Shown here: piece after piece, positions 7,180 through 42,405 of the stretch | Layout of the letters: each line of letters begins with the position of its first letter | Numbering within the stretch: the first letter of the stretch is position 1 | Origin: an uncultured Actinomycetes bacterium | GTDB lineage: Bacteria > Actinomycetota > Thermoleophilia > Gaiellales > Gaiellaceae | DNA: 64,000 nucleotides | Assembly: GCA_963759365.1 (NCBI GenBank) | Contig: CAVWYX010000007.1 | Location: 29,422-93,421, forward strand | Direction of reading: 5' to 3' | Position numbers and translations under genes: made by a program | The notes under the pieces: generated by a model | What the model saw: the letters and a program-made list of their open reading frames with translations, nothing else | The model's database searches: none | What the model was told of the DNA's origin: nothing

Positions 7180-7883
7180 GCGGGGGCAGGCAGCGGCCCG
7201 CTCCTGTCCTGCGGGGTAACCCGCCCCACCTTCGTCAGCAGCAGCGCGACGATGACTCCGAAGACGAAGCCGCCCACGTGGGCGAAGAAAGCGACGCCGC
7301 CCCCGTTCGCGGCCGAGCCGAAGAGCCCGAAGTTCGCCTCGATCAGCTGGTAGAGGAACCAGGCGCCGAGGAAGAACCAGGCCGACAACTGAATCGGAAA
7401 GATGACGATGAGTCCGAGCACCCTCGAATTGGGGTAGAGGACGAAGTAGGCGCCGAGCACGGCGGCGATCGCGCCGCTCGCGCCCAGGTTGGGCACGCGC
7501 GCCTCGGCCGTCGTGCCGAAGGCGAGGGTAATCAGCGTCTGCACGATCGTCGCGACGAAGCCGCCGGCGAAGTAGAAGGCGAGGTAGCGGAGCGGGCCGA
7601 AGGCGTCCTCGACGTTCTTGCCGAACACGGCCAGGAAGAGCATGTTGCCCAGGATGTGGTCCCAGCTTCCGTGCAGGAACATCGCGGTGATCCAGCTGAC
7701 CCCCCAGTTCTCAGGCCCGTGGCAAGAGCCGTTGACGGTGCAGGGATAGAAGGAGGCGTGGAAGACGGCCGAGCGCAGGTGCGGTAGCTCGTAGAAAAGC
7801 CAGACCGCGAAGTTGGCGACGATGATCGCGACGTTGACGATCGGGAAGCGTCGAGCTCGAAGTCCATCGGAGAGGGGAAGCAC
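7176..7883 (-). CDS. rhomboid family intramembrane serine protease
   Basis: 235 aa polytopic ORF with HGSWDHILGNM and GASGAIAAVLGAY motifs. Confidence 0.85.
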   Translation of the reverse strand: MLPLSDGLRARRFPIVNVAIIVANFAVWLFYELPHLRSAVFHASFYPCTVNGSCHGPENWGVSWITAMFLHGSWDHILGNMLFLAVFGKNVEDAFGPLRYLAFYFAGGFVATIVQTLITLAFGTTAEARVPNLGASGAIAAVLGAYFVLYPNSRVLGLIVIFPIQLSAWFFLGAWFLYQLIEANFGLFGSAANGGGVAFFAHVGGFVFGVIVALLLTKVGRVTPQDRSGPLPAPA

Positions 7884-10733: not shown

Positions 10734-10768
10734 CCGTGGGCGGGAATCGCCGCGACGCCACGCGGGGG
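10734..10768 (+). repeat. J1: degenerate R remnant (left end of array)
   Basis: ccgtgggcGGGAATcgccgcGACGCCaCGCGGGGG aligns with the R tail plus first bases of the cassette at 35680-35708 (GGGAATGTCACCCGACGCCGCCGCGGGGG). Confidence 0.5.
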
Positions 10769-10875
10769 TCATTCGTCGTCGTGGTCGGTGTTCGCGGTTC
10801 GATACTGCGGCCGCCCGGTGGGCCGGTAGACCTGGATCGTCACGCCCTTCGAGTCGGCTCGCGAGTCGTCGACAT
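10769..10875 (-). pseudogene. C-terminal fragment of RibD_C/DHFR-like gene
   Basis: About 105 nt collinear with 35710-35815. It encodes ...SRADSKGVTIQVYRPTGRPQY..DDE plus stop; there is no N-terminal part. Confidence 0.7.
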
Positions 10876-11467: not shown

Positions 11468-11502
11468 GTCGGCTGGGCCAGTGTTCGGGAATGTCACCTG
11501 AG
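11468..11502 (+). repeat. J3: R-only junction
   Basis: gtcggctgggccagtgttcgggaatgtcacctgag. Confidence 0.9.
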
Positions 11503-11503
11503 T

Positions 11504-12016
11504 TTGCGGCAGTTAGCGTTAACGGCCGTGCGGGAGGGCTCGGGACAGCTTGTCCTTCGCGAGATCGAAGATCGTGATCTCGGCGTGCTGTTCGAGCACT
11601 CGAGGGATCGCGACGCTATACGGATGGCCGCGTTCACTTCGCCGGAGGCCGATGATCGAACGAGCTTCGAGCGACGGTGGGCGCGGCTGAGGAGCGACGG
11701 CTTTACGAGGAACAGGGTCGTCGAGATCGACGGTCGAGTTGTGGGTCACATTGCGAGCTTCGACTTGGAGGGTCACCGCGAGGTCACCTATTGGATCGGC
11801 CGTGAAGATTGGGGCCGCGGCATTGCCACGCGTGCCCTGCAAGAGTTCTTGCAGCTGGAGGCAACCCGTCCGCTTTACGCTCACGCTGCGAGCGACAACG
11901 CCGCGTCGATTCGTGTGTTGACGAAGTGCGGTTTCCTTATCGTGGGCGAGGGGCGCGAGTTCGCTCATGGGCGCAACGAGGAAACGGACGAGGTCGTCCT
12001 CCGACTCGATGCATGA
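11504..12016 (+). CDS. GNAT family N-acetyltransferase (copy 1; copy 2 at 36960)
   Basis: LVLREIEDRDLGVLFEH...YWIGREDWGRGIATRALQEFL. The start may be GTG 11528. Confidence 0.8.
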   Translation: MRQLALTAVREGSGQLVLREIEDRDLGVLFEHSRDRDAIRMAAFTSPEADDRTSFERRWARLRSDGFTRNRVVEIDGRVVGHIASFDLEGHREVTYWIGREDWGRGIATRALQEFLQLEATRPLYAHAASDNAASIRVLTKCGFLIVGEGREFAHGRNEETDEVVLRLDA

Positions 12017-12025
12017 CCCCAACTG

Positions 12026-12062
12026 CCCTCGGCTGCGCCAGTGTTCGCGAATGTTCCCTGAG
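12026..12062 (+). repeat. J4: R-only junction
   Basis: ccctcggctgcgccagtgttcgcgaatgttccctgag. Confidence 0.85.
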
Positions 12063-12800: not shown

Positions 12801-12849
12801 ACCTGGTCTGCGTCTGCGGGGAGCCCGCGCGAAGTACAAGGCCCGAGGA

Positions 12850-12951
12850 CTGAGCGAGCCTCCTCTCCCCTGAGGTAGTCGGGTATTACCGCTACTCAGT
12901 AGTTGAAGAGGGAACCCTCGCCTGGGCCAGTGTTCCGGAATGACCCCCGAG
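12850..12951 (+). repeat. J5: full junction L-M(v1)-H-R
   Basis: ctgagcgagcctcctctcccctgaggtagtcgggtattaccgctactcagtagttgaagagggaaccctcgcctgggccagtgttccggaatgacccccgag. Confidence 0.9.
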
Positions 12952-12972
12952 CGGGGACGCTTGGTGGCCCGA

Positions 12973-13497
12973 TTAGCTTCCCCGCGTTTCCGGGCGAATC
13001 GGCAGCATCAGTGAGCAATAGCCGTTGATCAGGGCGTAGCCGCTGTCGGTGTAGAGACGGAGAGCGGGGTCGTTGTCTTCCTCGGTCTGCACGACTAGGC
13101 GGAGTGCGCCCGACGCGATTGCAGCCGCTTGGACGGAGCTGAGAAGGGCACGACCGACTCCACGACGACGGTGCGTCGGCAGGACGAAAAGGTCTCTGAT
13201 CTGCCAGAAGTGGGCGAGCCGCAAGGATGCCGGTACTTCCATCGTGATCGCGAAGCCGACGAACCTCCCACTGTCTTCGGCGACGAACGCGCGTAGCTGG
13301 GTGCTGAGGTTCTGTTCCAGCCAACCTATTGCCTGGGAGGAGTAGGAAGCCTCGCCGTAGTGGGCGCGATACTTGTCGAAGAGCTCGGCGAGTGCTTCGA
13401 TTTCGGAGCGTGTCGGTGCGGTCAGAGTCCGAACTGAGACCGGCTCGCTGGTGGCCGAAGGACTGGCATGGGTGTTCTGACTCACGGCTCTCTCCAC
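12973..13497 (-). CDS. GNAT family N-acetyltransferase (copy 1; frameshifted copy at 21237)
   Basis: 174 aa; FVLPTHRRRGVGRALLSSVQAAAIASGALRLVVQTEEDNDPALRLYTDSGY. Confidence 0.8.
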   Translation of the reverse strand: MERAVSQNTHASPSATSEPVSVRTLTAPTRSEIEALAELFDKYRAHYGEASYSSQAIGWLEQNLSTQLRAFVAEDSGRFVGFAITMEVPASLRLAHFWQIRDLFVLPTHRRRGVGRALLSSVQAAAIASGALRLVVQTEEDNDPALRLYTDSGYALINGYCSLMLPIRPETRGS

Positions 13498-13524
13498 GAA
13501 AACGGTATCGCCAAGCGGCAGTAA

Positions 13525-13633
13525 CCTCGCCTGGGCCAGCGTCCTCTCACCTGAAGGCCCTTCCGGTATTACCGATACTCAGTAGTTACACGCTGGATGC
13601 GGGGTCGGCCAGGGTCCGCGATGTCACCCGACG
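13525..13633 (+). repeat. J6: L-M(v1) then variant spacer and R tail
   Basis: cctcgcctgggccagcgtcctctcacctgaaggcccttccggtattaccgatactcagtagtt|acacgctggatgcggggtcggccagggtccgcgatgtcacccgacg. Confidence 0.85.
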
Positions 13634-14437
13634 ATCGCCGTCGACAAGTGGGTTGCGTGTTCGCGTATGTGTGCCTCGGCGCTTTCCCAGCTCTCAAGGT
13701 GACCTTCGGCGAGCAGTCGGGCATACGGCGGTTTGCCAAGAAAGCCGAGGTCGTGAATGAGCTGTGCCTCGCGGCCGCAGCGTTCCACAGCGACATCCAA
13801 GATGTCGGCGGGGAAAATCGCGGCCCCGTAGCCTTCGCGGAAGACATGGATGCGACGCCTTGTCTCGACCAGGCTGAGCTGGGAAGCGGGCATCAGAGGG
13901 ACGAAGCTGAGTAACGCCCAGGCGAGATCCCACGAGCGTCGGCCCGGGCCAGCGAGGTCCCAGTCAATGAACGTCCATCCGTCGGCCCCGCGAACGAGGT
14001 TCCAGGGCGCGAGATCGTTGTGACAGAGCACCTCGCTAGGCCCGCGCGGGTCGCGACCCCCGGTCTGACCACGGCTGGCCGTCCAGCAACCGAAAGCCTG
14101 TGACAGCATCGTGGTAGCGGCGAATCAGAGCGGAGATTTCGGCAAGCGCCTGGTCGTCAGCCACAAGGTCGAAGTGGTCTGGCCACACGACCGCTCCATC
14201 GATGTAAGTGAGGATCTCGCGGCCCCGCTCGTCGATCCCTCGTACGCGAGGCGCCCCCTCGAACCCGCTCGACTCCAGGTGCCGCAGCAGTTCGTGGACA
14301 CACGGTGTCCACGGTCCGGTGGGGTGTCGCACGGTCGAACCGACCTTCACGACCTCCGCGCTCATATTCCCGCCTGAGAGCTGCTCCTCCACACAGACAT
14401 CCTGCCGCTCAAACCAGCGCCGCGCGACCACGCCCAA
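13624..14437 (-). pseudogene. aminoglycoside/choline-kinase-type phosphotransferase (APH fold), frame break about 14040-14105
   Basis: The N-part ORF is 14036..14437 and the C-part ORF is 13624..14109. The C-part carries [13 protein letters not shown] and IDWDLAG catalytic motifs. Confidence 0.7.
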
Positions 14438-14457
14438 ACGCCTCCGATGGGATCTCT

Positions 14458-14563
14458 GGGCTGCGCGAGCCTCCTCTCCCCGTTGTCAGTAGTCGGGTGT
14501 TACCGCTACTCAGTAGTTGGAAAGAGAACCCTCGGCTGGGCCAGTGACTCGGACAGGTCGACG
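14458..14563 (+). repeat. J7: L-M(v1)-H with degenerate R
   Basis: gggctgcgcgagcctcctctccccgttgtcagtagtcgggtgttaccgctactcagtagttggaaagagaaccctcggctgggccagtgactcggacaggtcgacg. Confidence 0.8.
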
Positions 14564-21105: not shown

Positions 21106-21137
21106 GGCGGATCGTAGTCGCGGTTTCGGCAGAACCT

Positions 21138-21215
21138 GGGTAGTCCGGTATCACCGCTACTCAGTAGTTGGAGAGGGAACCCTCGCCTGGGCCAGGTTCC
21201 GGAATGACCCCCGAG
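21138..21215 (+). repeat. J13: M(v1)-H-R
   Basis: gggtagtccggtatcaccgctactcagtagttggagagggaaccctcgcctgggccaggttccggaatgacccccgag. Confidence 0.85.
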
Positions 21216-21236
21216 CGGGGACGCTCGGTGGCCCGA

Positions 21237-21760
21237 TTAGCTTCCCCGCGTTTCCGGGCGAATCGGCAGCATCAGTGAGCAATAGCCGTTGATCAGGGCG
21301 TAGCCGCTGTCGGTGTAGAGACGGAGAGCGGGGTCGTTGTCTTCCTCGGTCTGCACGACTAGGCGGAGTGCGCCCGACGCGATTGCAGCCGATCGGACGG
21401 AGCTGAGAAGGGCACGACCGACTCCACGACGACGGTGCGTCGGCAGGACGAAAAGGTCTCTGATCTCCCAGAAGTGCGCGAGCCGCAAGGATGCCGGTAC
21501 TTCCATCGCGATCGCGAAGCCGACGAACCTCCCACTGCTTCGGCGACGAACGCGCGTAGGTGCGTGCTGAGGTTCTGTTCCAGCCAACCTATCGCCTGGG
21601 AGGAGTAGGAAGCCTCGCCGTAGTGGGCGCGATACTTGTCGAAGAGCTCGGCGAGTGCTTCGATTTCGCTGCGTGTCGGTGCGGTCAGAGTCCGAACTGA
21701 GACCGGCTCGCCGGTGGCTGAAGGACTGGGATGGGTCTTCTGACTCACGGCTCTCTCCAC
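21237..21760 (-). pseudogene. GNAT acetyltransferase, near-identical copy of 12973..13497 with a 1-nt deletion
   Basis: Collinear with 12973-13497. ctgtcttcggcg in copy 1 reads ctgcttcggcg here (about 21535), which splits the ORF into 21237..21587 and 21359..21838. Confidence 0.75.
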
Positions 21761-21787
21761 GAAAACGGTATCGCCAAGCGGCAGTAA

Positions 21788-21913
21788 CCTCGCCTGGGCC
21801 AGCGTTCTCTCACCTGAAGGCCCTTCCGGTATTACCACTACTCAGTAGTTGGAGAAAGAACCCTCGCTGCAGAGAACCCTCGCCTGCGCCAGCGTTCGGG
21901 AATGTCACTCGGG
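21788..21913 (+). repeat. J14: full L-M(v1)-H-R with internal H duplication
   Basis: cctcgcctgggccagcgttctctcacctgaaggcccttccggtattaccactactcagtagttggagaaagaaccctcgc tgc agagaaccctcgcctgcgccagcgttcgggaatgtcactcggg. Confidence 0.9.
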
Positions 21914-22570: not shown

Positions 22571-22679
22571 CTCGGCCTGGGCCAGCGTCCTCTCACCTGA
22601 AGGCTTCCGGTATTACCGCTACTCAGTAGTTGGAGAGAGAACCCTCGCCTGGGCCAGTGTTCGGGAATGTCCCCTGACG
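22571..22679 (+). repeat. J15: full junction, best consensus copy L-M(v1)-H-R
   Basis: ctcggcctgggccagcgtcctctcacctgaaggcttccggtattaccgctactcagtagttggagagagaaccctcgcctgggccagtgttcgggaatgtcccctgacg. Confidence 0.95.
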
Positions 22680-22854
22680 ACAACCCGTCAGATCAACCTG
22701 ACGATCAAAAACGACTACGGGAAGAGCGCCGATTGAGCGCAAGCTCATCCTCGGACACCTCGCCGAGGTCGAGCCGCTCCTGCGCGCGACGTGCACGCAC
22801 GAGACAACCCCTCGCAGCCGATCGACGCGGTCGTGGCGGAGCTCGGCTCGACGG

Positions 22855-29451: not shown

Positions 29452-29668
29452 GAGGCGCCCCCTCGAACCCGCTCGACTCCAGGTGCCGCAGCAGTTCGTG
29501 GACACACGGTGTCCACGGTCCGGTGGGGCGTCGCACGGTCGAACCGACCTTCACGACCTCCGCGCTCATATTCCCGCCTGAGAGTTGCTCCTCCACACAG
29601 ACATCCTGACGCTCAAACCAGCGCGGCGCGAACACGCCCAAACGCCTCCGATGGGATCTCTGGGCGCG
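29452..29668 (-). pseudogene. N-terminal fragment of the APH-like phosphotransferase (duplicate of 14236-14460)
   Basis: About 215 nt nearly identical to 14236-14460. It encodes MSAEVVKVGSTVRRPTGPWTPCVHELLRHLESSGFEGAP and then stops being homologous. Confidence 0.7.
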
Positions 29669-30396: not shown

Positions 30397-30455
30397 ACGT
30401 TTACGCTGGACGGGCGACCGATGAGTCTTCGCCTTGAAGGCGGTCTAGAGGAAGC

Positions 30456-31004
30456 GTGATCCTCGTACACGTAGCGATGTCTCTCGACGGCTTTATCGCC
30501 GGCCCGGGGCACGACATGTCCTGGACAGGCGGGGCCGAGTTCGACACCTCCAGCCAGCTCGCAGACGACGTCGCGCGTTCAACCAGCGTCGTGCTGGCCG
30601 GCCGTGGCTGGTACGAGGTTGCGAGCGCAGACGAGGGCGGCGCTGTCGCTGGAATCTACGGCGGGGCTTGGTCGGGACCGGTCCTCGTCTTGACGCATCA
30701 TCCGGAGCGGCTCGCGTCCGACGCAACGGTGGAAGCGGTCTCGGACCTAGGGACTGCTTTGGCGCGCGCCGAGGAACTCGCCGACGGTCGAGCGGTGAGC
30801 ATCTTCGGTGCCGATGTTGCTCGGCAGGTGCTGGCGCTTGGTCGGCTAGACGAGATCGTCGTGCAGATCGTCCCTCTCATACTTGGCGATGGGGTGCGGC
30901 TGTTCGGCGAGGCGCCGGCTCCCCAAGTCAGGCTGGAGCGCACGTACGTCGGTACGAGCGGGACGCTGACGGACATCCGCTTTCGAGTCTCCGGCCGTCG
31001 ATGA
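30456..31004 (+). CDS. RibD_C / dihydrofolate-reductase-like family protein
   Basis: 182 aa; MILVHVAMSLDGFIAGPGHDMSW...IVVQIVPLILGDGVRLF. Confidence 0.8.
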   Translation: MILVHVAMSLDGFIAGPGHDMSWTGGAEFDTSSQLADDVARSTSVVLAGRGWYEVASADEGGAVAGIYGGAWSGPVLVLTHHPERLASDATVEAVSDLGTALARAEELADGRAVSIFGADVARQVLALGRLDEIVVQIVPLILGDGVRLFGEAPAPQVRLERTYVGTSGTLTDIRFRVSGRR

Positions 31005-35589: not shown

Positions 35590-35697
35590 CCCTTTGGGTG
35601 AGCGTGCTGTCACTAGAGCGCAGTCCGTGGTAATGGCGACTCTGTAGTTGGAGAGAGAACCCTCGCCTGCGCCGGCGTTCGGGAATGTCACCCGACG
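35590..35697 (+). repeat. J30: full L-M(v2)-H-R
   Basis: ccctttgggtgagcgtgctgtcactagagcgcagtccgtggtaatggcgactctgtagttggagagagaaccctcgcctgcgccggcgttcgggaatgtcacccgacg. Confidence 0.9.
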
Positions 35698-35709
35698 CCG
35701 CCGCGGGGG

Positions 35710-36363
35710 TCATTCGTCGTCCTGCTCGGTGGTGGCGGTTGCATACTGCGGGCGTCCGGTGGGCCGATAGACCTGGATCGTTACGCCCTTCGAGTCGGCT
35801 CTCGAGTCGACCAGGTCAAGCGCAATGTCCGGGCCGGCCTCGGGGAACAGCCGCGTGCCCTGGCCGACGACCACGGGGACGATGAGCAGGTTGATCTCGT
35901 CGACCAGGTCGTTTTCGAGCAGCCATCGGATCAGGGCACCGCTGCCGTGCACCTGCAGCTCACCCGCCGGCTTGGCTTTCAGCTCGCCGATTGCCGCCGC
36001 GAGGTCACCGGAGAGGAGGGTCGTGTTCGCCCAGCGCGGTTCGGTGAGCGTGGTCGATGCGAGGTACTTGGGCTTCGTGTTCAAGGCAGCTGCGATCTGG
36101 TGGTTGCCCGGATCTTCCAGCGCGGCGCGAGCCCGCTCCTCTGCGCCCCAGTAGCCGGCGAAGAGCTCGTAGGTCCGCCGGCCGAACAGGAACGCGTCGG
36201 CGCGCTGGTAGGTCTGGTTGATGAACGTCATGGTCTCGTTGTCGAACACCCCCATGGCCCATCCGCCGCGCTCGAATCCGTTCCTGCGGTCCTCATCCGA
36301 CGCGCCGCCGTTTCCCTGCATCACTCCATCGACGGTGACTTGCGTCATGGTGGTCAGTTTCAT
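35710..36363 (-). CDS. RibD_C / dihydrofolate-reductase-like family protein
   Basis: 217 aa; MKLTTMTQVTVDGVMQG...FGRRTYELFAGYWG...LQVHGSGALIRWLLENDLVDEINLLIVPVVVGQGTRLF. Confidence 0.85.
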   Translation of the reverse strand: MKLTTMTQVTVDGVMQGNGGASDEDRRNGFERGGWAMGVFDNETMTFINQTYQRADAFLFGRRTYELFAGYWGAEERARAALEDPGNHQIAAALNTKPKYLASTTLTEPRWANTTLLSGDLAAAIGELKAKPAGELQVHGSGALIRWLLENDLVDEINLLIVPVVVGQGTRLFPEAGPDIALDLVDSRADSKGVTIQVYRPTGRPQYATATTEQDDE

Positions 36364-36516
36364 GGGTTCGTCCTTTCTCTCGTGCTGGTCTTTCTCGTTA
36401 TGACCGCACCGAGGCGCGGAGCTCATCGGTCGCAGCAGAGTCTTCCGTCCGGCCGAATCGAGCCTGAGGATCTGGAAGACGGAGCTGGCAGAGTCGTGGT
36501 CAACAAAGGAGGCGTC

Positions 36517-36921
36517 GTGTCGGGCCCGTTCATCTTCATCGCCACCAACCGTCTTAAGCCCGGGAAGCTCGCCGACGAAAGGAGGCGAGTGCCAGGCCTC
36601 GTCGACTTCATCGAAGCGAACGAGCCGCGGCTGATCGCGTTCAACGAGTACGTCAACGAGGATGGCACCGAAGTCGGGGTTGTCCAAGTTCACGCGGACG
36701 CCGACTCGATGCGGTTACACATGGAGATCATTGCCGAGCGTGCCGCCGCCGCGTACGCCGAAACGGTCGAGGCGACCACGAGCATCCAGGTTTTCGGCAC
36801 GCCGAGTGACGCCGTCCTCAGAATGCTCGAGCGTCAGGCTGGCGCCGGTGTCCCGCTGTTGGTCAAGCCCCACCACCTCGGTGGGTTCACACGCCCACAC
36901 CGTTGGGAACCGGTGACGTAA
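36517..36921 (+). CDS. ferredoxin-like (ABM-type) protein of unknown function
   Basis: GTG 36517 after AAAGGAGG; SGPFIFIATNRLKPGKLADERRRVPGLVDFIEANEPRLIAFNEYVNEDGTEVGVVQVHADADSM. Confidence 0.6.
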   Translation: MSGPFIFIATNRLKPGKLADERRRVPGLVDFIEANEPRLIAFNEYVNEDGTEVGVVQVHADADSMRLHMEIIAERAAAAYAETVEATTSIQVFGTPSDAVLRMLERQAGAGVPLLVKPHHLGGFTRPHRWEPVT

Positions 36922-36958
36922 TCGTCGGCTGGGCCAGTGTTCGGGAATGTCACCTGAG
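36922..36958 (+). repeat. J31: R-only junction (consensus-like)
   Basis: tcgtcggctgggccagtgttcgggaatgtcacctgag. Confidence 0.95.
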
Positions 36959-36959
36959 T

Positions 36960-37472
36960 TTGCGGCAGTTAGCGTTAACGGCCGTGCGGGAGGGTTCGGG
37001 ACAGCTTGTCCTTCGCGAGATCGAAGATCGTGATCTCGGCGTGCTGTTCGAGCACTCGAGGGATCGCGACGCTATACGGATGGCCGCGTTCACTTCGCCG
37101 GAGGCCGATGATCGAGCGAGCTTCGAGCGACGGTGGGCGCGGCTGAGGAGCGACGGCTCTACGACGAACAGGGTCGTCGAGATCGACGGTCGAGTTGTGG
37201 GTCACATTGCGAGCTTCGACTTGGAGGGTCACCGCGAGGTCACCTATTGGATCGGCCGTGAAGATTGGGGCCGCGGCATTGCCACGCGTGCCCTACAAGA
37301 GTTCTTGCAGCTGGAGGCAACCCGTCCGCTTTACGCTCATGCTGCGAGCGACAACGCCGCGTCGATTCGTGTGTTGACGAAGTGCGGTTTCCTTATCGTG
37401 GGCGAGGGCCGCGAGTTCGCTCATGGGCGCAACGAGGAAACGGACGAGGTCGTGCTCCGACTCGATGCATGA
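36960..37472 (+). CDS. GNAT family N-acetyltransferase (copy 2 of 11504..12016)
   Basis: Collinear with 11504-12016 at a constant offset of 25456, with roughly ten substitutions by eye. Confidence 0.8.
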   Translation: MRQLALTAVREGSGQLVLREIEDRDLGVLFEHSRDRDAIRMAAFTSPEADDRASFERRWARLRSDGSTTNRVVEIDGRVVGHIASFDLEGHREVTYWIGREDWGRGIATRALQEFLQLEATRPLYAHAASDNAASIRVLTKCGFLIVGEGREFAHGRNEETDEVVLRLDA

Positions 37473-37482
37473 CCCCAACTGT

Positions 37483-37607
37483 CCTCGGCTGGACGAGCGT
37501 GCCGTCTCTCGAGCGCAGTCGGGGGTAAACGCAACTCTGTAGTCACTGGCGCGACTATCGGCAGCGACCCCGTCGCTTGGGCCAGCGTTCGGGAATGACG
37601 CCTGAGG
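37483..37607 (+). repeat. J32: L-M(v2), spacer, R
   Basis: cctcggctg|gacgagcgtgccgtctctcgagcgcagtcgggggtaaacgcaactctgtagtc|actggcgcgactatcggcagcgaccccgtcgcttgggccagcgttcgggaatgacgcctgagg. Confidence 0.85.
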
Positions 37608-37636: not shown

Positions 37637-38083
37637 CTAGCCGATCTGCTCGGCCAGCCCGATGAGGATCCCCTCAGGGCCTCGGACGTAACAGAGCCGA
37701 TACTGATCCTCGTACTGCGCCAGTTCACCAACCAACTCGGCTCCGTGCGAGCGGAGCCGGGCGAGCGTATCGTCGATGTCCTCGACGGCGAACATGATGC
37801 GTAGGTAGCCGAGAGCGTTCACGGGGGCGTTCCGGTGATCGGCGACCGCAGGCGGCGTGAGAAATCGCGAGATCTCGAGCCGGCTGTGGCCGTCCGGCGT
37901 GCGCATCATGGCGATCTCGACGCGCATGTGGCGCAGTCCAGTGACGCGCTCTGCCCAGTCTCCTTCGATCGTGGCTCGCCCTTCGAGCTCGAGGCCGAGC
38001 TCGGCGAAAAAAGAGATAGCGGCATCGAGGGATTCCACCACGATGCCGACGTTGTCCATCCGTTGAAGCGTCACGCGGCCCAC
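37637..38083 (-). CDS. VOC/glyoxalase family protein
   Basis: 148 aa; MDNVGIVVESLDAAISFFAELGLELEG...CYVRGPEGILIGLAEQ. Confidence 0.8.
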   Translation of the reverse strand: MGRVTLQRMDNVGIVVESLDAAISFFAELGLELEGRATIEGDWAERVTGLRHMRVEIAMMRTPDGHSRLEISRFLTPPAVADHRNAPVNALGYLRIMFAVEDIDDTLARLRSHGAELVGELAQYEDQYRLCYVRGPEGILIGLAEQIG

Positions 38084-38158
38084 ACTAGTCCTGTTGTCGC
38101 TTCGACACGCCCACCGGACGAGCGCACAATTGGTGCGGCGAGGTCTTGGACCATCACC

Positions 38159-39172
38159 ATGGCCAAACGTAACTATTTAGTGGAGGGCTTATCTGGTGCC
38201 GGTAAATCCTCGGTCTACGAGGAGCTGATCCGACGCGGCTACAAGGCCATCAGTACCGACCGTGCTTGGAAGTACCATGCCGACCCTGACACCGGTCTCC
38301 GAGGTGGGCCCACTCATCACGACAACGCTATGTGGGACCAGCAAAAAGCTGTCAGCGAACTCGAAAGCCCGGAACCAGAAGTGTTATTCGTCTGTGGAAG
38401 CAGCCGCAATCGCGACCGCTTTCTGCCCTATTTCACCAAGATATTCAACCTCCGCATCGACGACGACACCATGCGTCGCCGCCTCCAAGAGCGCACCAAT
38501 AATGAATTTGGCAAGCAGTCCGAGGAACTCGAACTCATGCTCAGGCTAAATCGGAGCGACGAGAAACCGGCCGGAGCTATAGATGTGGACGGTACCCAGC
38601 CTCTTAACCAGGTAGTCGACGAATTGCTTCGCTTAGCAAACTGCAGAACCGTGATGAGCGACTCGAGGCTGACACCATGGTCTAAACGCGGGTCCGCGAT
38701 CGGCCAGTCATTCGTGATCTCTGAGTCCGCACTGCCGATCGTGCAGGCTGCTGCTAGTTCGCGGAAACGCATCCTCCGTGGAACGTCGGATGAATTCTGG
38801 GTTGTCCTAGGCCGCGAGACCATCACTCGCATCGAATACGGCTGGTCTGGCTACGTTCTTGCGACGCTGTTGCCGTACCTCGACGAGCAGGGCATCGACC
38901 TTATGCACTCTGACCACGATGAGGTGGCCTCGACCATCTCGCAGACCCGAGAGGGCTCGGTCTTTGTCCTCACGTCAGATCACCGTGAGCGTTACCTGAC
39001 ACGCCTCGATCCAATTGAGTTCGACGGGGCAGTGCTTCGCCGCTACTACGAGGAGTTCAACGAGACGGCAGCAGAGGGCGTCGATGCCGCAATGCTGGAC
39101 GGGATTGCTTTCTTTCGTGACACGCTCGCGCCTCTCGAATCCGCGATCGTTGCCGTGTTCATCATCGGATAG
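38159..39172 (+). CDS. P-loop kinase-like N-domain fused to ~170 aa domain of unknown function; visibly lower GC
   Basis: ATG 38159; Walker A LVEGLSGAGKSS. The N-domain resembles the 35095 gene. A/T-rich codons are unlike the neighbours. Confidence 0.7.
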   Translation: MAKRNYLVEGLSGAGKSSVYEELIRRGYKAISTDRAWKYHADPDTGLRGGPTHHDNAMWDQQKAVSELESPEPEVLFVCGSSRNRDRFLPYFTKIFNLRIDDDTMRRRLQERTNNEFGKQSEELELMLRLNRSDEKPAGAIDVDGTQPLNQVVDELLRLANCRTVMSDSRLTPWSKRGSAIGQSFVISESALPIVQAAASSRKRILRGTSDEFWVVLGRETITRIEYGWSGYVLATLLPYLDEQGIDLMHSDHDEVASTISQTREGSVFVLTSDHRERYLTRLDPIEFDGAVLRRYYEEFNETAAEGVDAAMLDGIAFFRDTLAPLESAIVAVFIIG

Positions 39173-39190
39173 TCCCTGCTCAGGCCGCGT

Positions 39191-39229
39191 GCGCTCGCCT
39201 GGACCAGCGTGCCGGAATGTCACCCGACC
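39191..39229 (+). repeat. J33: R-only junction
   Basis: gcgctcgcctggaccagcgtgccggaatgtcacccgacc. Confidence 0.85.
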
Positions 39230-39327
39230 GCCGTGGGCGATTGTGTCGCGGCGTGGTGACAGACTGTTGCTTATCCAGACTGGCACGCGTAGTCTCGCGC
39301 CCAAGTCCTCTACCCAGGGAGGTCCTC

Positions 39328-40218
39328 ATGACCACCACCAGCCTGCTCCCTGACGTCGGGATCGAGCTTCGGGAGGGTTATGCCAAGGTCGGCGATCAGA
39401 CCTTGCATTACGTCGAGGCCGGTGACGGGCCGCTGATCGTTCTGTTGCACGGCTTTCCCGAGTTCTGGTTCGGTTGGCGGCTACAGATCGAGCCGCTCAC
39501 GGCGGCGGGTTTTCGGGTAGTCGCCCCCGACACGCGTGGCTACAACCTGTCATCGAAGCCAGAGGGCTTCGAGTCCTACGGCGTCGACCTGCTCGCCGCC
39601 GACATCCGCGGCCTCATCGGAGAACTCGGTGCCGAGTCTGCGCTGTTGGTCGGTCACGACTGGGGCGGAAGCATCGCCTGGACCATCGCGATGAACCACC
39701 CCGAGGTGGTCGACCGACTCGCCATCCTCAACGCGGCCCATCCGCGGCGGCTCTCGGAGGGACTGCACCACCCGAGCCAGCTTCGGAAGTCCTGGTACTT
39801 CTTCTTCTTCGCAACACCCGGACTGCCCGAGGAGATCGTGCCCGCCAGAGACTGGCACTTCTTCCGACACTTCCTGCATGACGCGAACCCGCCTTACACG
39901 CCGCAGGAGATCGAACGCTACATCGAGGCGTGGTCACAGCCGGGGGCAGCGGCCGGGATGATCAACTACTACCGAGCCTCGGTACGACAGTCCCAGAAGG
40001 AAGCCGCAGCAAAGCTTCGCCCGATCTCGGCGCCGACACTGGTCATCTGGGGGGAGCGCGATTCCTACCTCGGCTCCGACCTCGCCGAGCCCGACCGCGA
40101 CGACGTGCCCAACCTCGACCGCGTGGAGCGCCTGGCCGACGCGTCCCACTGGGTGCATCACGACGAGGCTGAACGCGTCAACCAACTGCTCATCGACTTC
40201 TTCGCCGCCGCCGGGTAA
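39328..40218 (+). CDS. epoxide-hydrolase-like alpha/beta hydrolase
   Basis: ATG 39328 after AGGGAGG; LLHGFPEFWFGWR, GHDWGG, HWVHHDEAERVNQLL. Confidence 0.85.
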   Translation: MTTTSLLPDVGIELREGYAKVGDQTLHYVEAGDGPLIVLLHGFPEFWFGWRLQIEPLTAAGFRVVAPDTRGYNLSSKPEGFESYGVDLLAADIRGLIGELGAESALLVGHDWGGSIAWTIAMNHPEVVDRLAILNAAHPRRLSEGLHHPSQLRKSWYFFFFATPGLPEEIVPARDWHFFRHFLHDANPPYTPQEIERYIEAWSQPGAAAGMINYYRASVRQSQKEAAAKLRPISAPTLVIWGERDSYLGSDLAEPDRDDVPNLDRVERLADASHWVHHDEAERVNQLLIDFFAAAG

Positions 40219-40249
40219 ACGCAACTCTGTAGTTACACGCTGGGTTGCG
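40212..40249 (+). repeat. J34: M(v2) only, overlaps the hydrolase stop codon
   Basis: cgggtaaacgcaactctgtagtt|acacgctgggttgcg (the same post-M sequence type as J6 and J20). Confidence 0.65.
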
Positions 40250-40256
40250 AGCAGGT

Positions 40257-40856
40257 CTACGACGTGTGGACGGGATAGCGCAGATGCGTGACACCCACAC
40301 CGGTGACGACTGTCGGATTCCCGAGGACTGCCGGTGTGTTCGCGAGGTGGTCGAACAGCCGCACTCCTGCGCCTAGCAACACGGCAGCCAGATCGATGTG
40401 GATCTCGTCGAGCAGTCCGGCGTCCAGGCACTGCTGGATCGTTTGGGCGCCGTGCACTCCCACGGACTTCGGGCCGGCAGCCGATTTCGCTCGAGCAACG
40501 GCGCTTTCGATGCCGTCGGTGACGAACTGGACTGTCGAGCCGGGCCGTGGCCAGCCGTCCGGCACGTTGTGGGTGGCGACGAAAGCGGGGACATCCCACG
40601 GGTGCCGGCCGCCCCAGCCGTCGGCGCGCTCGAACGTGCGCCGACCGGTGAGCATGGCGCCGACCTCAGCCTGCAAGCCTCTCAGGTGGTCGGCGCTCGG
40701 CGCCGAGACGTGGAACGTCATGCCGGATGTCGTGCTCGCTGTGGGGACCTCGACGTCGCCCGAGAAGTACCAGTCGAAAACCTCGGCGACCCCGTCGTTC
40801 GCGTCGGCGACGTACCCGTCGAGAGACATCGACATGATTGCGACCACCTTGGTCAT
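40257..40856 (-). CDS. RibD_C / dihydrofolate-reductase-like family protein
   Basis: 199 aa; MTKVVAIMSMSLDGYVADANDG...GRRTFE...VGVHGAQTIQQCLDAGLLDEIHIDLAAVLLGAGVRLF. Confidence 0.8.
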   Translation of the reverse strand: MTKVVAIMSMSLDGYVADANDGVAEVFDWYFSGDVEVPTASTTSGMTFHVSAPSADHLRGLQAEVGAMLTGRRTFERADGWGGRHPWDVPAFVATHNVPDGWPRPGSTVQFVTDGIESAVARAKSAAGPKSVGVHGAQTIQQCLDAGLLDEIHIDLAAVLLGAGVRLFDHLANTPAVLGNPTVVTGVGVTHLRYPVHTS

Positions 40857-40903
40857 GGTGCAGCTCCATCGACGGAGACGAGCGTCGTGGTCGTCAGTTT
40901 CAT
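40853..40903 (-). pseudogene. 16-codon N-terminal remnant of a 35710-type DHFR-like gene, now a uORF overlapping the 40856 start (ATGA)
   Basis: MKLTTTTLVSVDGAAP plus stop. The first ~50 nt plus ~110 nt of leader are collinear with 36312-36475. Confidence 0.5.
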
Positions 40904-41012
40904 GGGTTCGTCCTTTCTCTCGTGGTGGTCTTTCTCGTTTACGACCGCACCGAGGCGCGGATCTCATCGGTCCCAGCAGAGGCCGTCCCGGCCGAATCGA
41001 GCCTGAGGATCT

Positions 41013-41026
41013 GATACTCAGTAGTT
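41013..41026 (+). repeat. J35: M-core remnant
   Basis: gatactcagtagtt, directly abutting the conserved DHFR leader. Confidence 0.45.
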
Positions 41027-41039
41027 GCTGCCGCGATAC

Positions 41040-42251
41040 CTACGCGCGAGCGGGGAAGAGTCGTTTCTCCGTTCCGAGGTGTGAAGCCCATTCGAGCTTG
41101 GTCGCGCGCGCGAAGAGCATGTAGGCGCGAAGCGCGTCCCGCATCGCGTCGACGAAGCCGTCGGCGCGGCGCGGGTCGAAGCCGTCCTCCCACCAGACGT
41201 CGAGCACCTCCACGCGGGCTTGGTCCCGGTCGATCCGCGGTTCGATCCGGCCGACGAAGCGGTCGCCGAAGGAGATCGGGAGCACGTAATAGCCCCAACG
41301 GCGCTTTGCCGGCGGGAAGAAGCCCTCCCACACGTAGGCGAAGTCGAACATGCTCGCAAGGAGGGCTGTGTCCCACAGCAGCGAGTCGAACGGGGCGATG
41401 AACGCGACGGAAGACGTCGGCTCCGGCGGCGCCTGCAGCAGGGCGAGCTCTTCGGCGAGGACGAGGCGCTTGCCGCGCACGCCCTCGACCTCGACGGGCA
41501 CGAGTGCGCCGAGCTCGACCAGTTCGTTGCGCAGATCGGTGCGCACCGGCGGATCGGCGATGCGGGCGAACGTACCGCCGGCGCCGCCGGGCCCGAGGAG
41601 GCCGTGGGCTCGGTACCGGGACAGGAGCTTGTGCCGGAGCTGTTCTCGCTCCGACACCTCGTGCGCGAGCACCTCGGCCGGAAGCAGCCGTTCGAGAAGG
41701 TCGTAGTACCGGATGTTGCCGTCGCGGCGGGCGAGGCCGATCGCGCCCATGACGGTGTACGCCTCGAGCACGGCACGCACGGCGTTCTCCGGCATCCCGA
41801 ACCAGTTCTTCGTCGGGCCGCTCTCCCGCTCGAAGTCGGCCGAAGACAGCGGCCCGTCCGCCCGGATGCCTTCGAGGACGCGCTCGGCCACCGCCGTGTT
41901 GTCGGCGAGTGCCTGGGAGTGGAACTTGGGCCCCTTGCGGCCCATGGCATGACGGAACCAAGGGAACTCGGTCGTCGGGACGAATGACAGCGCCTTGTTG
42001 GTCGCCTCGAAGATCTCACGGCGCTCGTAGAGCAAGTCGCACCAGGCGGGCTCGTAGCCGGCGACGCGTGCGTGCAGCACGAGATCGTGGTTCCGGCCGG
42101 CGACCGCGATCGGGTCGAACTGGATCGACCCGAGCGTGCGGAAGACCTCGAGCACCGCGTCGGGCCCACCCTCGAGGGATCGCGCCGGCGCAAGGCGGTG
42201 GCGGGCTACGAGGAAGCGCCGCGCGGCGTCGGCCGTAACCTTCACCGACAT
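41040..42251 (-). CDS. winged-helix YcaQ/AlkZ-like (DUF1006) putative DNA glycosylase
   Basis: 403 aa from MSVKVTADAARRFLVARHRL...GSIQFDPIAVAGRNHDLVLHARV...WGYYVLPISFGDRFVGRIEPRIDR. Confidence 0.75.
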   Translation of the reverse strand: MSVKVTADAARRFLVARHRLAPARSLEGGPDAVLEVFRTLGSIQFDPIAVAGRNHDLVLHARVAGYEPAWCDLLYERREIFEATNKALSFVPTTEFPWFRHAMGRKGPKFHSQALADNTAVAERVLEGIRADGPLSSADFERESGPTKNWFGMPENAVRAVLEAYTVMGAIGLARRDGNIRYYDLLERLLPAEVLAHEVSEREQLRHKLLSRYRAHGLLGPGGAGGTFARIADPPVRTDLRNELVELGALVPVEVEGVRGKRLVLAEELALLQAPPEPTSSVAFIAPFDSLLWDTALLASMFDFAYVWEGFFPPAKRRWGYYVLPISFGDRFVGRIEPRIDRDQARVEVLDVWWEDGFDPRRADGFVDAMRDALRAYMLFARATKLEWASHLGTEKRLFPARA

Positions 42252-42292
42252 GACGCTACCCCTTGGGCCGTTGGCGGCCCAAGCGCAGGCCG

Positions 42293-42372
42293 ACTCGCCT
42301 GAGCGAGCGTAACTGGCAGCCGAGCACAGTCTGTCGTCCGGCGGAGCGATCTGCTCGGGAATGTTCCCTGGG
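42293..42372 (+). repeat. J36: L, M remnant, R
   Basis: actcgcctgagcgagcgtaactggcagccgagcacagtctgtcgtccggcggagcgatctgctcgggaatgttccctggg. Confidence 0.65.
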
Positions 42373-42405
42373 CGATGAGAGGCCATCTGGAGGAGGATCG
42401 ACTGC

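Follow-up and report, generated by a model that had tools for sequence, protein, structure and literature searches.

Extracytoplasmic function (ECF) sigma factors belonging to the ECF56 group carry sigma2 and sigma4 regions followed by a SnoaL-like C-terminal extension, and one of this family, SigG of Mycobacterium tuberculosis, is induced by DNA damage. The present work concerns a 64-kb stretch of DNA from a Gaiellaceae-like soil bacterium (the whole stretch is called the window; G+C = 66.8%), in which two dissimilar genes of the RibD_C (dihydrofolate reductase, DHFR) family are preceded by nearly the same leader of about 110 nt. The closest described counterparts of the leader core are the ECF56 promoters. 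In Streptomyces venezuelae, the motif CGATGAGTT-N14-GGTC was obtained from genes whose RNA-seq signal rose strongly under constitutive expression of a truncated SVEN_4562 (bioRxiv 10.1101/2020.01.30.927608). The same study also located this motif at Rv0887c, a target of SigG in M. tuberculosis, as well as in C. woesei (gene Cwoe_2709), and showed in E. coli hybrid assays that Rv0887cp and SVEN_3513p are activated by the ECF56 sigma factors of S. venezuelae, M. tuberculosis and C. woesei; the regulons that it predicted across Actinobacteria include glyoxalase, DHFR and alpha/beta-hydrolase genes (bioRxiv 10.1101/2020.01.30.927608). For M. tuberculosis SigG, the consensus CGATGA(N18)GTCNNTA was drawn from Rv0887c and Rv0911, the start site being mapped by 5' rapid amplification of cDNA ends (Gaudion et al. 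2013, PMC3776920).

Two other features of the locus also have described counterparts. Integron cassettes are gene-sized, repeat-bounded units, reordered across relatives, in which reverse units, for example those of chromosomal integrons, have their own promoter, as in the array that occupies much of the window. The attC sites of integrons are imperfect palindromes with RYYYAAC/GTTRRRY cores. Actinobacteria have been reported to be without complete integrons (PMC9024848). Translationally coupled open reading frames (ORFs) joined by an ATGA overlap have their likeness in a small upstream ORF (uORF) in front of one of the RibD_C genes, which likewise has a strong Shine-Dalgarno sequence and a stop-start overlap.

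Three RibD_C Genes and a Shared Leader

The window contains three genes of the family:
35710-36363, minus strand: gene 1, RibD_C/DHFR family, 217 aa (MKLTT... type); Pfam PF01872, E 6.7e-21
40257-40856, minus strand: gene 2, RibD_C/DHFR family, 199 aa (MTKVVAIMSMSLDG...); Pfam E 7.1e-11
30456-31004, plus strand: third RibD_C gene, GTG start; Pfam RibD_C E 4.1e-13

Thousands of homologues of the gene-1 and gene-2 proteins, 85-94% identical, were present in soil metagenomes. A search for recorded contigs that encode the window's gene-1 protein itself gave none. The only named homologue of gene 1 came from a Gaiellaceae metagenome-assembled genome (MAG), and the only named one of gene 2 was labelled Gemmatimonadaceae. 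The best 120 homologues listed for gene 2 (87-94% identical) were nearly all 199-200 aa long, which confirmed its start codon.

We call copy 1 the leader on the gene-1 side (36364-36475) and copy 2 that on the gene-2 side (40904-41011), both on the minus strand. When aligned, they were identical in 101 of 114 columns (88.6%), the figure being 93.9% between the promoter core and the ATG and 81% distally, whereas the proteins of genes 1 and 2 are 30% identical over 121 aa (E 2e-6). The preliminary description of this DNA was therefore right in assigning a common leader to two dissimilar DHFR-like units. Comparison of the window with itself by BLAST gave a slightly longer block, 36324-36474 matching 40864-41013 at 90.2% over 153 nt; since it runs past the ATG, the repeat takes in the first 13-14 codons or so. 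On either side of the block the flanks of the two copies were unrelated. From the distal end to the start codon, the parts of the two leaders and the third promoter are as follows:
36429-36475, minus strand: distal shared segment of copy 1, upstream of the -35 box, 81% identical between copies
40970-41025, minus strand: distal part of copy 2, shared as far as 41013 and adjoining the core of an A repeat, ACTCAGTAGT (41016-41025, plus strand)
36402-36428, minus strand: predicted ECF56/SigG-type promoter of copy 1, CGATGAGCT (-35, 36428-36420)-N14-GGTC (-10, 36405-36402), exact match to the published consensus
40943-40969, minus strand: predicted ECF56/SigG-type promoter of copy 2, CGATGAGAT (-35, 40969-40961)-N14-GGTC (-10, 40946-40943), match to the published consensus
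30419-30445, plus strand: third predicted ECF56/SigG-type promoter, CGATGAGTC (-35, 30419-30427)-TTCGCCTTGAAGGC-GGTC, match to the published consensus
36364-36401, minus strand: predicted short 5' untranslated region (UTR) of gene 1, with the Shine-Dalgarno sequence AAAGGA (36376-36371) 7 nt before the ATG, as read from the sequence
40904-40942, minus strand: 5' UTR predicted for copy 2; its Shine-Dalgarno sequence is that of copy 1

Candidate ECF56/SigG Promoters

The core CGATGAG-N-T-N14-GGTC, common to 36428-36402 and 40969-40943, differed between the two copies at one of its 27 nt. The 27-nt pattern matched the window twice, where 0.02 matches were expected. With the looser consensus from the literature, CGATGAG-N17-GTC, there were three exact matches where 0.42 were expected, a number that was reached in none of 100 shuffles, and each of the three RibD_C genes was directly preceded by one of these matches in its own orientation. 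The third promoter lies 10 nt upstream of the GTG and has only the two boxes and their spacing in common with copies 1 and 2, its spacer being unrelated. This is what would be expected from a promoter and not from an RNA fold. Scans for sigma70 promoters and intrinsic terminators around copies 1 and 2 found nothing.

The boxes and the spacing are those of the promoters of the SVEN_4562 regulon and of Rv0887c and Rv0911, CGATGAG(T)T-N14-GGTC being the same arrangement as CGATGA-N18-GTC, and the downstream families, DHFR-like/RibD_C and glyoxalase, are also the same. Unlike these references, the window promoters stand before cassette-shuffled genes, and one of them is followed by a fossil uORF. 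We consider it very probable that the leader core is an instance of the already described ECF56/SigG promoter class, the dependence on such a sigma factor in this organism being predicted from the motif. The leader is thus a real and largely ordinary finding: a candidate riboswitch is removed, and three RibD_C genes of a Gaiellaceae-like soil bacterium are assigned to the ECF56/SigG regulon, which is conserved and functionally unexplained.

We propose that the shared leader is, in all likelihood, a portable expression module made of three parts. The first would be an ECF56 (SigG-family) promoter with the -35 box CGATGAG(N)T, a 14-nt spacer and the -10 box GGTC; the second a 5' UTR of about 30 nt with an AAAGGA ribosome-binding site; the third, which precedes the promoter, the first part of the repeat element found at the end of a gene cassette. 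RNA polymerase with an ECF56 sigma factor would initiate a few bases past GGTC. The promoter would make each RibD_C gene a member of the conserved SigG regulon, which comprises RibD_C reductases, glyoxalase/VOC proteins and hydrolases.

Several points weigh against this assignment. At position 8, the -35 box has C or A here and T in Streptomyces, and all three window boxes deviate at position 8 or 9 from the TT that the Streptomyces consensus has. Compared with the M. tuberculosis consensus, the TA after the -10 box is one base nearer. The conservation of the spacer exceeds what a promoter would lead one to expect, and the spacer contains a covarying pair (C-G in 42 sequences, G-C in 41), which could reflect two lineages or a small hairpin. 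No ECF sigma gene was found in the window by tblastn or with an ECF hidden Markov model, and the main reference for the motif is a preprint (bioRxiv 10.1101/2020.01.30.927608). Lastly, the leader of close homologues is not better conserved than four-fold degenerate positions: among 20 gene-1 loci the identity was 0.89 at four-fold degenerate sites, 0.80 in the proximal leader and 0.58 in the distal leader. The test is uninformative, and the similarity of the two copies, or local conservation alone, is therefore no proof of selection or function. The case for a function of the leader comes from the presence of the core in different gene families and taxa, from the third copy with its unrelated spacer and from the published experiments.

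Among the 248 loci fetched for comparison (numbered L001, L004 and so on), L053 and L047 have candidate sigma factors near the motif. In a Thermoleophilaceae MAG (L053, 5699-6610, plus strand) and in a Solirubrobacteraceae MAG (L047, 5258-6199, plus strand), an ECF sigma gene (Sigma70_r2/r4_2) with a sub-threshold SnoaL_2 match was located 0.6 kb upstream of a motif copy and 5 kb from one, respectively. Their domain composition suggests that both are ECF41/ECF56-like.

Occurrence in Other Genomes and in Soil Metagenomes

The leader is not confined to two recent duplicates, its core having been found very widely. The pattern CGATGAGNTCNGNGCNNCGGTNCGGTC, made of the invariant leader columns, was present at at least 119 loci when one genome per species was scanned. 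Most of the loci listed came from MAGs under the labels Gaiellaceae, Thermoleophilia, Solirubrobacterales or unclassified Actinomycetes/Actinomycetota; some belonged to Streptomyces, and a few to MAGs of other phyla. The C. woesei of the published motif is presumably Conexibacter woesei, of the class Thermoleophilia and a relative of the Gaiellaceae-type bacterium from which the window comes. Among the matches listed, 94 of the 124 unique sites had ATGAAACTGACGACC, the start of an MKLTT-type RibD_C protein, 60-70 nt downstream. Other sites were located before RibD_C genes of different subfamilies (L040, Pfam E 4e-16), before a third RibD_C-like type (MTATYTFDVFSSLDG...) or before genes of the glyoxalase/VOC kind (L050, E 2e-12).

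A sample of 111 metagenome upstream regions, picked solely by a coding-sequence pattern, contained the SigG-type motif in 32 cases (about 30%). In this sample, GATGAG and GGT(C) were the most conserved positions, and the spacing between the boxes was fixed save for a few variants with a 1-nt insertion or deletion (for example L176, L193, L228). What is new here, the first of three modest additions to the published record, is that the promoter is extremely common in uncultured Thermoleophilia, before several RibD_C subfamilies and before about this proportion of the sampled soil homologues.

The contigs fetched for the homologues differed in how leader and gene were combined. The same leader preceded a 94% identical homologue of gene 1 (L001), and a different one preceded homologues with 88-89% identity (L002, L003). 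In L004, gene 1 with its full leader was followed in tandem by gene 2 with the same uORF and a truncated leader, from which the -35 box had been deleted. The proximal leader was placed directly at the ATG of gene 2 in L007-L009, and L005 showed a diverged leader followed by AAAGGAGCTGCACCATG.

A Fossil N-Terminus Upstream of Gene 2

Between the copy-2 leader and gene 2 lies the small ORF:
40853-40903, minus strand: 16-codon uORF, MKLTTTTLVSVDGAAP followed by a stop; its TGA (40855-40853) overlaps the ATG of gene 2 (40856-40854) as ATGA

The layout is AAAGGA-N7-ATG, 16 codons and the TGA overlapping the ATG at 40856. Thirteen codons of gene-1 type pass into GGAGCTGCACC, the upstream region native to gene 2, so that the uORF is, as the preliminary description had it, a fossil gene-1-type N-terminus ending in ATGA on gene 2. 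The same description took the locus as evidence of replacement among paralogues; recombination is upheld, and an origin in this genome is not, since the fusion exists in nine other species-level genomes. A 16-codon uORF ending on gene 2 was observed in L004, L017, L035, L041, L072, L073, L115, L116 and L119, with an ATGA overlap throughout save in L119 (GTGA). The fusion is old and did not arise in this genome, as judged from these sequences. The peptide has drifted (MKP..., MKV..., VKLM..., ...VAG...), with L, P or V at position 3 and T/I and D/A exchanges elsewhere.

Variant forms of the region (L016, L070, L005, L007, L078) give the course of events. L016 possesses a 29-codon form in which 24 gene-1 codons, through GATGAG, are followed by GCGAAAGGAGCTGCACC, which stands natively before gene 2 in L005 and L070. 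Removal from this form of the 39 nt between two GGAG repeats yields the exact window sequence. In L078, a 2-nt deletion puts the uORF in frame with gene 2. The L016 intermediate shows that the promoter module was transplanted by illegitimate deletions at short repeats. In a first step, 24 gene-1 codons were fused at GATGAG to the native upstream region of gene 2 (the L016 form); in a second, the 39 nt between the GGAG repeats were lost, leaving the 16-codon ORF with its stop overlapping the gene-2 ATG. The uORF thereby provides a dated series of deletion intermediates for the transplant of a promoter onto a paralogue, which is new here.

Translation of gene 2 may rely on termination-reinitiation or on the gene's own GGAG site within the uORF. 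Coupling by the ATGA overlap is plausible given the strong ribosome-binding site of the uORF and the stop-start overlap; it is not required, since gene 2 keeps its own GGAG and other gene-2 lineages have no uORF. Unlike dedicated leader peptides, the uORF is a decayed gene fragment with a drifting peptide, fused in frame in L078 and absent from these other lineages.

A second fragment of a gene-1-type ORF is present in the window:
about 10752-10868, minus strand: remnant with the last 33 codons or so of a gene-1-type ORF, 87-90% identical to 35701-35809

This C-terminal remnant, which the preliminary description had reported, is real and continues into a repeat element; it supports recombination among paralogues.

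Interchangeable Upstream Modules

The 25 nt or so nearest the Shine-Dalgarno sequence in the gene-1 5' UTR accompanied the gene lineage irrespective of the promoter module upstream. In the 111 metagenome regions, this same sequence was joined to several modules:
32 of 111 regions: SigG-type promoter module
34 of 111 regions: TGTCGGA-N16-CGT module, adjoining YCII and ECF (DUF6596) sigma genes
7-10 of 111 regions: lower-GC module containing TTGTGT-N17-TAAGAT
7 of 111 regions: upstream gene

The TGTCGGA-N16-CGT module, which reads GGCGGTGTCGGAT-N-CGTAGCAGGGGTGAG, was found before proteins 88-89% identical to gene 1 (L002, 7737-8000; L003, 7800-8000), with further examples in L133, L137 and L155. 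Its operon comprises RibD_C, YCII and ECF sigma genes, the last with Sigma70_r2/r4_2 and DUF6596 domains. Gene adjacency suggests that it is probably an ECF42-type autoregulated operon. The ECF42-linked module resembles the SigG-type one in its two-box ECF geometry and in serving the same RibD_C family; its boxes differ, and its sigma gene adjoins the target. Because near-identical proteins follow either module, the same RibD_C family would be placed alternatively under two ECF regulons. The occurrence of near-identical proteins under a SigG-type, an ECF42-linked or a sigma70-like module is also new here, and regulon membership is therefore exchanged by module swapping.

Duplication, Recombination and the Cassette Array

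The similarity of the two leaders could also be a mere by-product of recent duplication or gene conversion, the distal part being conserved as a recombination element or terminal repeat. For the leader as a whole we regard this as possible but rather unlikely. It agrees with a leader conservation that does not exceed that of synonymous sites in close relatives, and with the structure of the distal segment. In copy 1, the outer end of this segment, CCTGAGGATCTG (36463-36474 on the plus strand), opens a diverged A-like repeat of the cassette-end kind, into which the distal 45 nt or so run. Read on the plus strand, the two copies share ...GAATCGAGCCTGAGGATCTG and part from each other at the same base; the same distal block and break point were found in L001, L004, L016, L017, L072 and others. 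In L072 and L017, the unit continues as GAATACGAAGCGAACTAGGACCGCAAC and then the next B repeat, and L001 has the diverged form GAACGAAGCGAACTAGGACCGCAAC. The gene-2 unit 40243-41013 recurs as a single block in L072, L041 and L017, and L078 matches to 41005. Elsewhere in the window there are duplicates of entire cassettes, 97-98% identical:
11468-12035 = 36924-37491, duplicated unit, 98.4%
12869-13587 = 21135-21850, duplicated unit, 96.7%
14248-14465 = 29452-29668, duplicated unit, 97%

The proximal 65 nt do not fit a by-product, for the same core stands before divergent gene families and in Streptomyces, and the third copy has an unrelated spacer. Duplication or gene conversion is probably the correct reading of the distal part, and there it is compatible with the portable module proposed above.

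The repeats that delimit these units form an array of about 30 gene-sized units between about 9.85 and 43.7 kb, which encode GNATs, glyoxalases, hydrolases, RibD_C proteins, methyltransferases and AlkZ. Both repeat types are all on the plus strand. The B repeat, CTCGCCTGGGCCAG[TC]GTTCGGGAATGTCACCCGAG (24 copies), is on the 5' side of the units, and the A repeat, ...AGCGTCCTCTC.CCTGAGGTAGTCGGGTATTACCGCTACTCAGTAGT (21 copies), on their 3' side; full A+B junctions occur for example at 12847-12953, 22574-22680 and 35600-35698. The two types share a directly repeated core, CTGGGCCAG(C/T)GT. The break points of the duplications lie inside A or B repeats (GTCGGCTG/GGCCAG, CCTGAGG, GTAGTT). GNAT, alpha/beta hydrolase, VOC, gene-1 and gene-2 units were found at 91-97% identity, in another order, in L004, L016, L041, L072 and L116.

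Unlike integrons, the array has no integrase gene (IntI) in view, its repeats are direct, and many of its units are in mixed orientation. A Pfam scan of the larger ORFs at 1-10 kb and around the leaders, with the ORFs at 44-64 kb outside it, found no integrase. No AAC...GTT core pair of the inverted attC type was seen in the A and B repeats, neither repeat had an Rfam match, and RNAalifold returned no consensus fold for A. Folds of the A+B junction DNA were weak or inconsistent (z -2.6 to 0). An attC identity of the junction was rejected on its direct-repeat cores, its weak folds and its lack of inverted RYYYAAC/GTTRRRY cores. The B repeat was also considered as a promoter of the SigR/SigH type (GGAAT-N18-GTT) or the ECF41 type (TGTCACA-N16-CGTC) and rejected, no consistent -10 box being visible by eye.

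Both DHFR-like units are reverse-oriented in the array, and therefore need and carry their own promoter. We suggest, tentatively, that they are self-promoted reverse-oriented cassettes of an undescribed repeat-delimited array, that membership of the SigG regulon spreads by the shuffling of such units, that the distal leader (CCTGAGGATCTG...) is a recombination element, and that the system moves genes across phyla. The array is more novel than the leader and of potentially greater importance. An integron-like array would be unusual in Actinomycetota.

In lower-GC contigs, the same RibD_C gene was found as a high-GC island after an A-like core (AACTGTAGTGAC), which would amount to gene movement across phyla if the cassette reading is true. 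The contigs have 45-55% GC, and the MKLTT-type gene forms an island of 65-68% GC right after ...GATACCAGCATCGAAGAACTGTAGTGAC, a sequence that resembles the A-repeat core and contains the sigma70-like TTGTGT-N17-TAAGAT (L148, 1540-2250; L164; L190; L242; L183, 7640-7760; L231; L241; L200). The island of L148 adjoins what we take, by its look alone, to be an IS701/IS4-type transposase gene (515-1522), and that of L183 adjoins a group II intron (7577-7651; RF00029, 43.6 bits). The islands suggest cassette transfer across phyla.

A B-like motif, GGCC(C/A)GTGTTCGGGA(A/G), was observed about 45-60 nt upstream of the SigG -35 box in 101 of the 248 fetched loci, in several taxa (for example L113, 473-500; L031; L055, a Streptomyces; L089). 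It marks the 5' edge of the conserved module and may serve in recombination, act as an operator or have some other role.

Operator and RNA Readings

A role of the block as an operator, or as a promoter that works in both directions and is shared with the divergent 36517 gene, is very improbable; in this reading GACCG...CGGTC would be a palindromic site for a transcription factor. GACCG-N20-CGGTC does form an inverted repeat, the core is placed between divergent RibD_C-type genes in L047, L058 and L110, and copy 1 has a divergent neighbour. Copies 2 and 3, however, have no divergent partner; the upstream GAC is variable, whereas CGATGAG and GGTC are nearly invariant and asymmetric; the orientation to the downstream gene is fixed at the 94 of 124 listed sites described above; and the published data demonstrate a direct dependence on the sigma factor. 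The preliminary description had envisaged a conserved promoter shared with the 36517 gene. A promoter is retained and the sharing is not: the core is the DHFR-like gene's own promoter, since copies 2 and 3 lack a divergent partner and the shared block stops 41 nt before 36517. An invertible switch was considered for L047, L058 and L110, where the core faces away from the MKLTT-type gene, and discarded, as these are divergent pairs in which the core drives the other RibD_C-like gene.

That the leader is a structured RNA, of the riboswitch type or bound by a protein, which controls the DHFR-like genes in cis is largely refuted and very improbable. Rfam 15 gave no match at the gathering threshold anywhere in the window, and around both copies a cut-off of E<=10 brought only noise. 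Six representative leaders folded no better than dinucleotide shuffles (z -1.2 to +0.7) into structures that differed, and in the metagenome sample, changes on the 5' side of the putative closing stem were not compensated in the 3' half. Conservation of about 110 nt before several RibD_C subfamilies had favoured it, and so had a small hairpin, ACCG/CGGU plus 3 bp, that RNAalifold proposed from 93 distinct leaders and that includes the covarying pair; this consensus amounts to 7 pairs and -3.3 kcal/mol. A CCGAU-GAG-AUCGG stem-loop is possible in some variants. The third window copy keeps the two boxes only, and if the core is the published promoter, most of it would stay untranscribed. The preliminary description had pointed to a 7-bp stem, GTCTTCC (36441-36447) with GGAAGAC (36474-36480), as a feature of copy 1 only. 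It is indeed restricted to that copy, and an RNA role is not supported: the stem is not conserved, one arm lies mostly beyond the shared block, and the whole is upstream of the -35 box, in the part predicted to be untranscribed. A leader peptide starting at the ATG within CGATGAG was also rejected: a frame does open at this ATG, but the distance to the main ATG varies from 61 to 68 nt over all three frames, and there is no Shine-Dalgarno sequence.

Neighbouring Genes

The divergent gene at 36517-36915 (plus strand) encodes 133 aa, with AAAGGAGG 6 nt before its GTG, and its product had no Pfam match. It shares with gene 1 a unit bounded by the B repeats 35664-35698 and 36926-36958. The G+C content drops to 0.605 at window positions 38000-40000, and an ORF at 37835-39172 (plus strand) with an AAA_18 kinase-like domain overlaps, in its 5' part, the opposite-strand glyoxalase gene 37637-38083. 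Directly upstream of the gene-2 unit is a gene for an AlkZ-like DNA glycosylase (41040-42386, minus strand; PF06224, E 2.9e-47). AlkZ-like genes or fragments recur near gene-1 and gene-2 units elsewhere (L004, 3175-4110; L007-L009), a proximity that fits the DNA-damage link of M. tuberculosis SigG.

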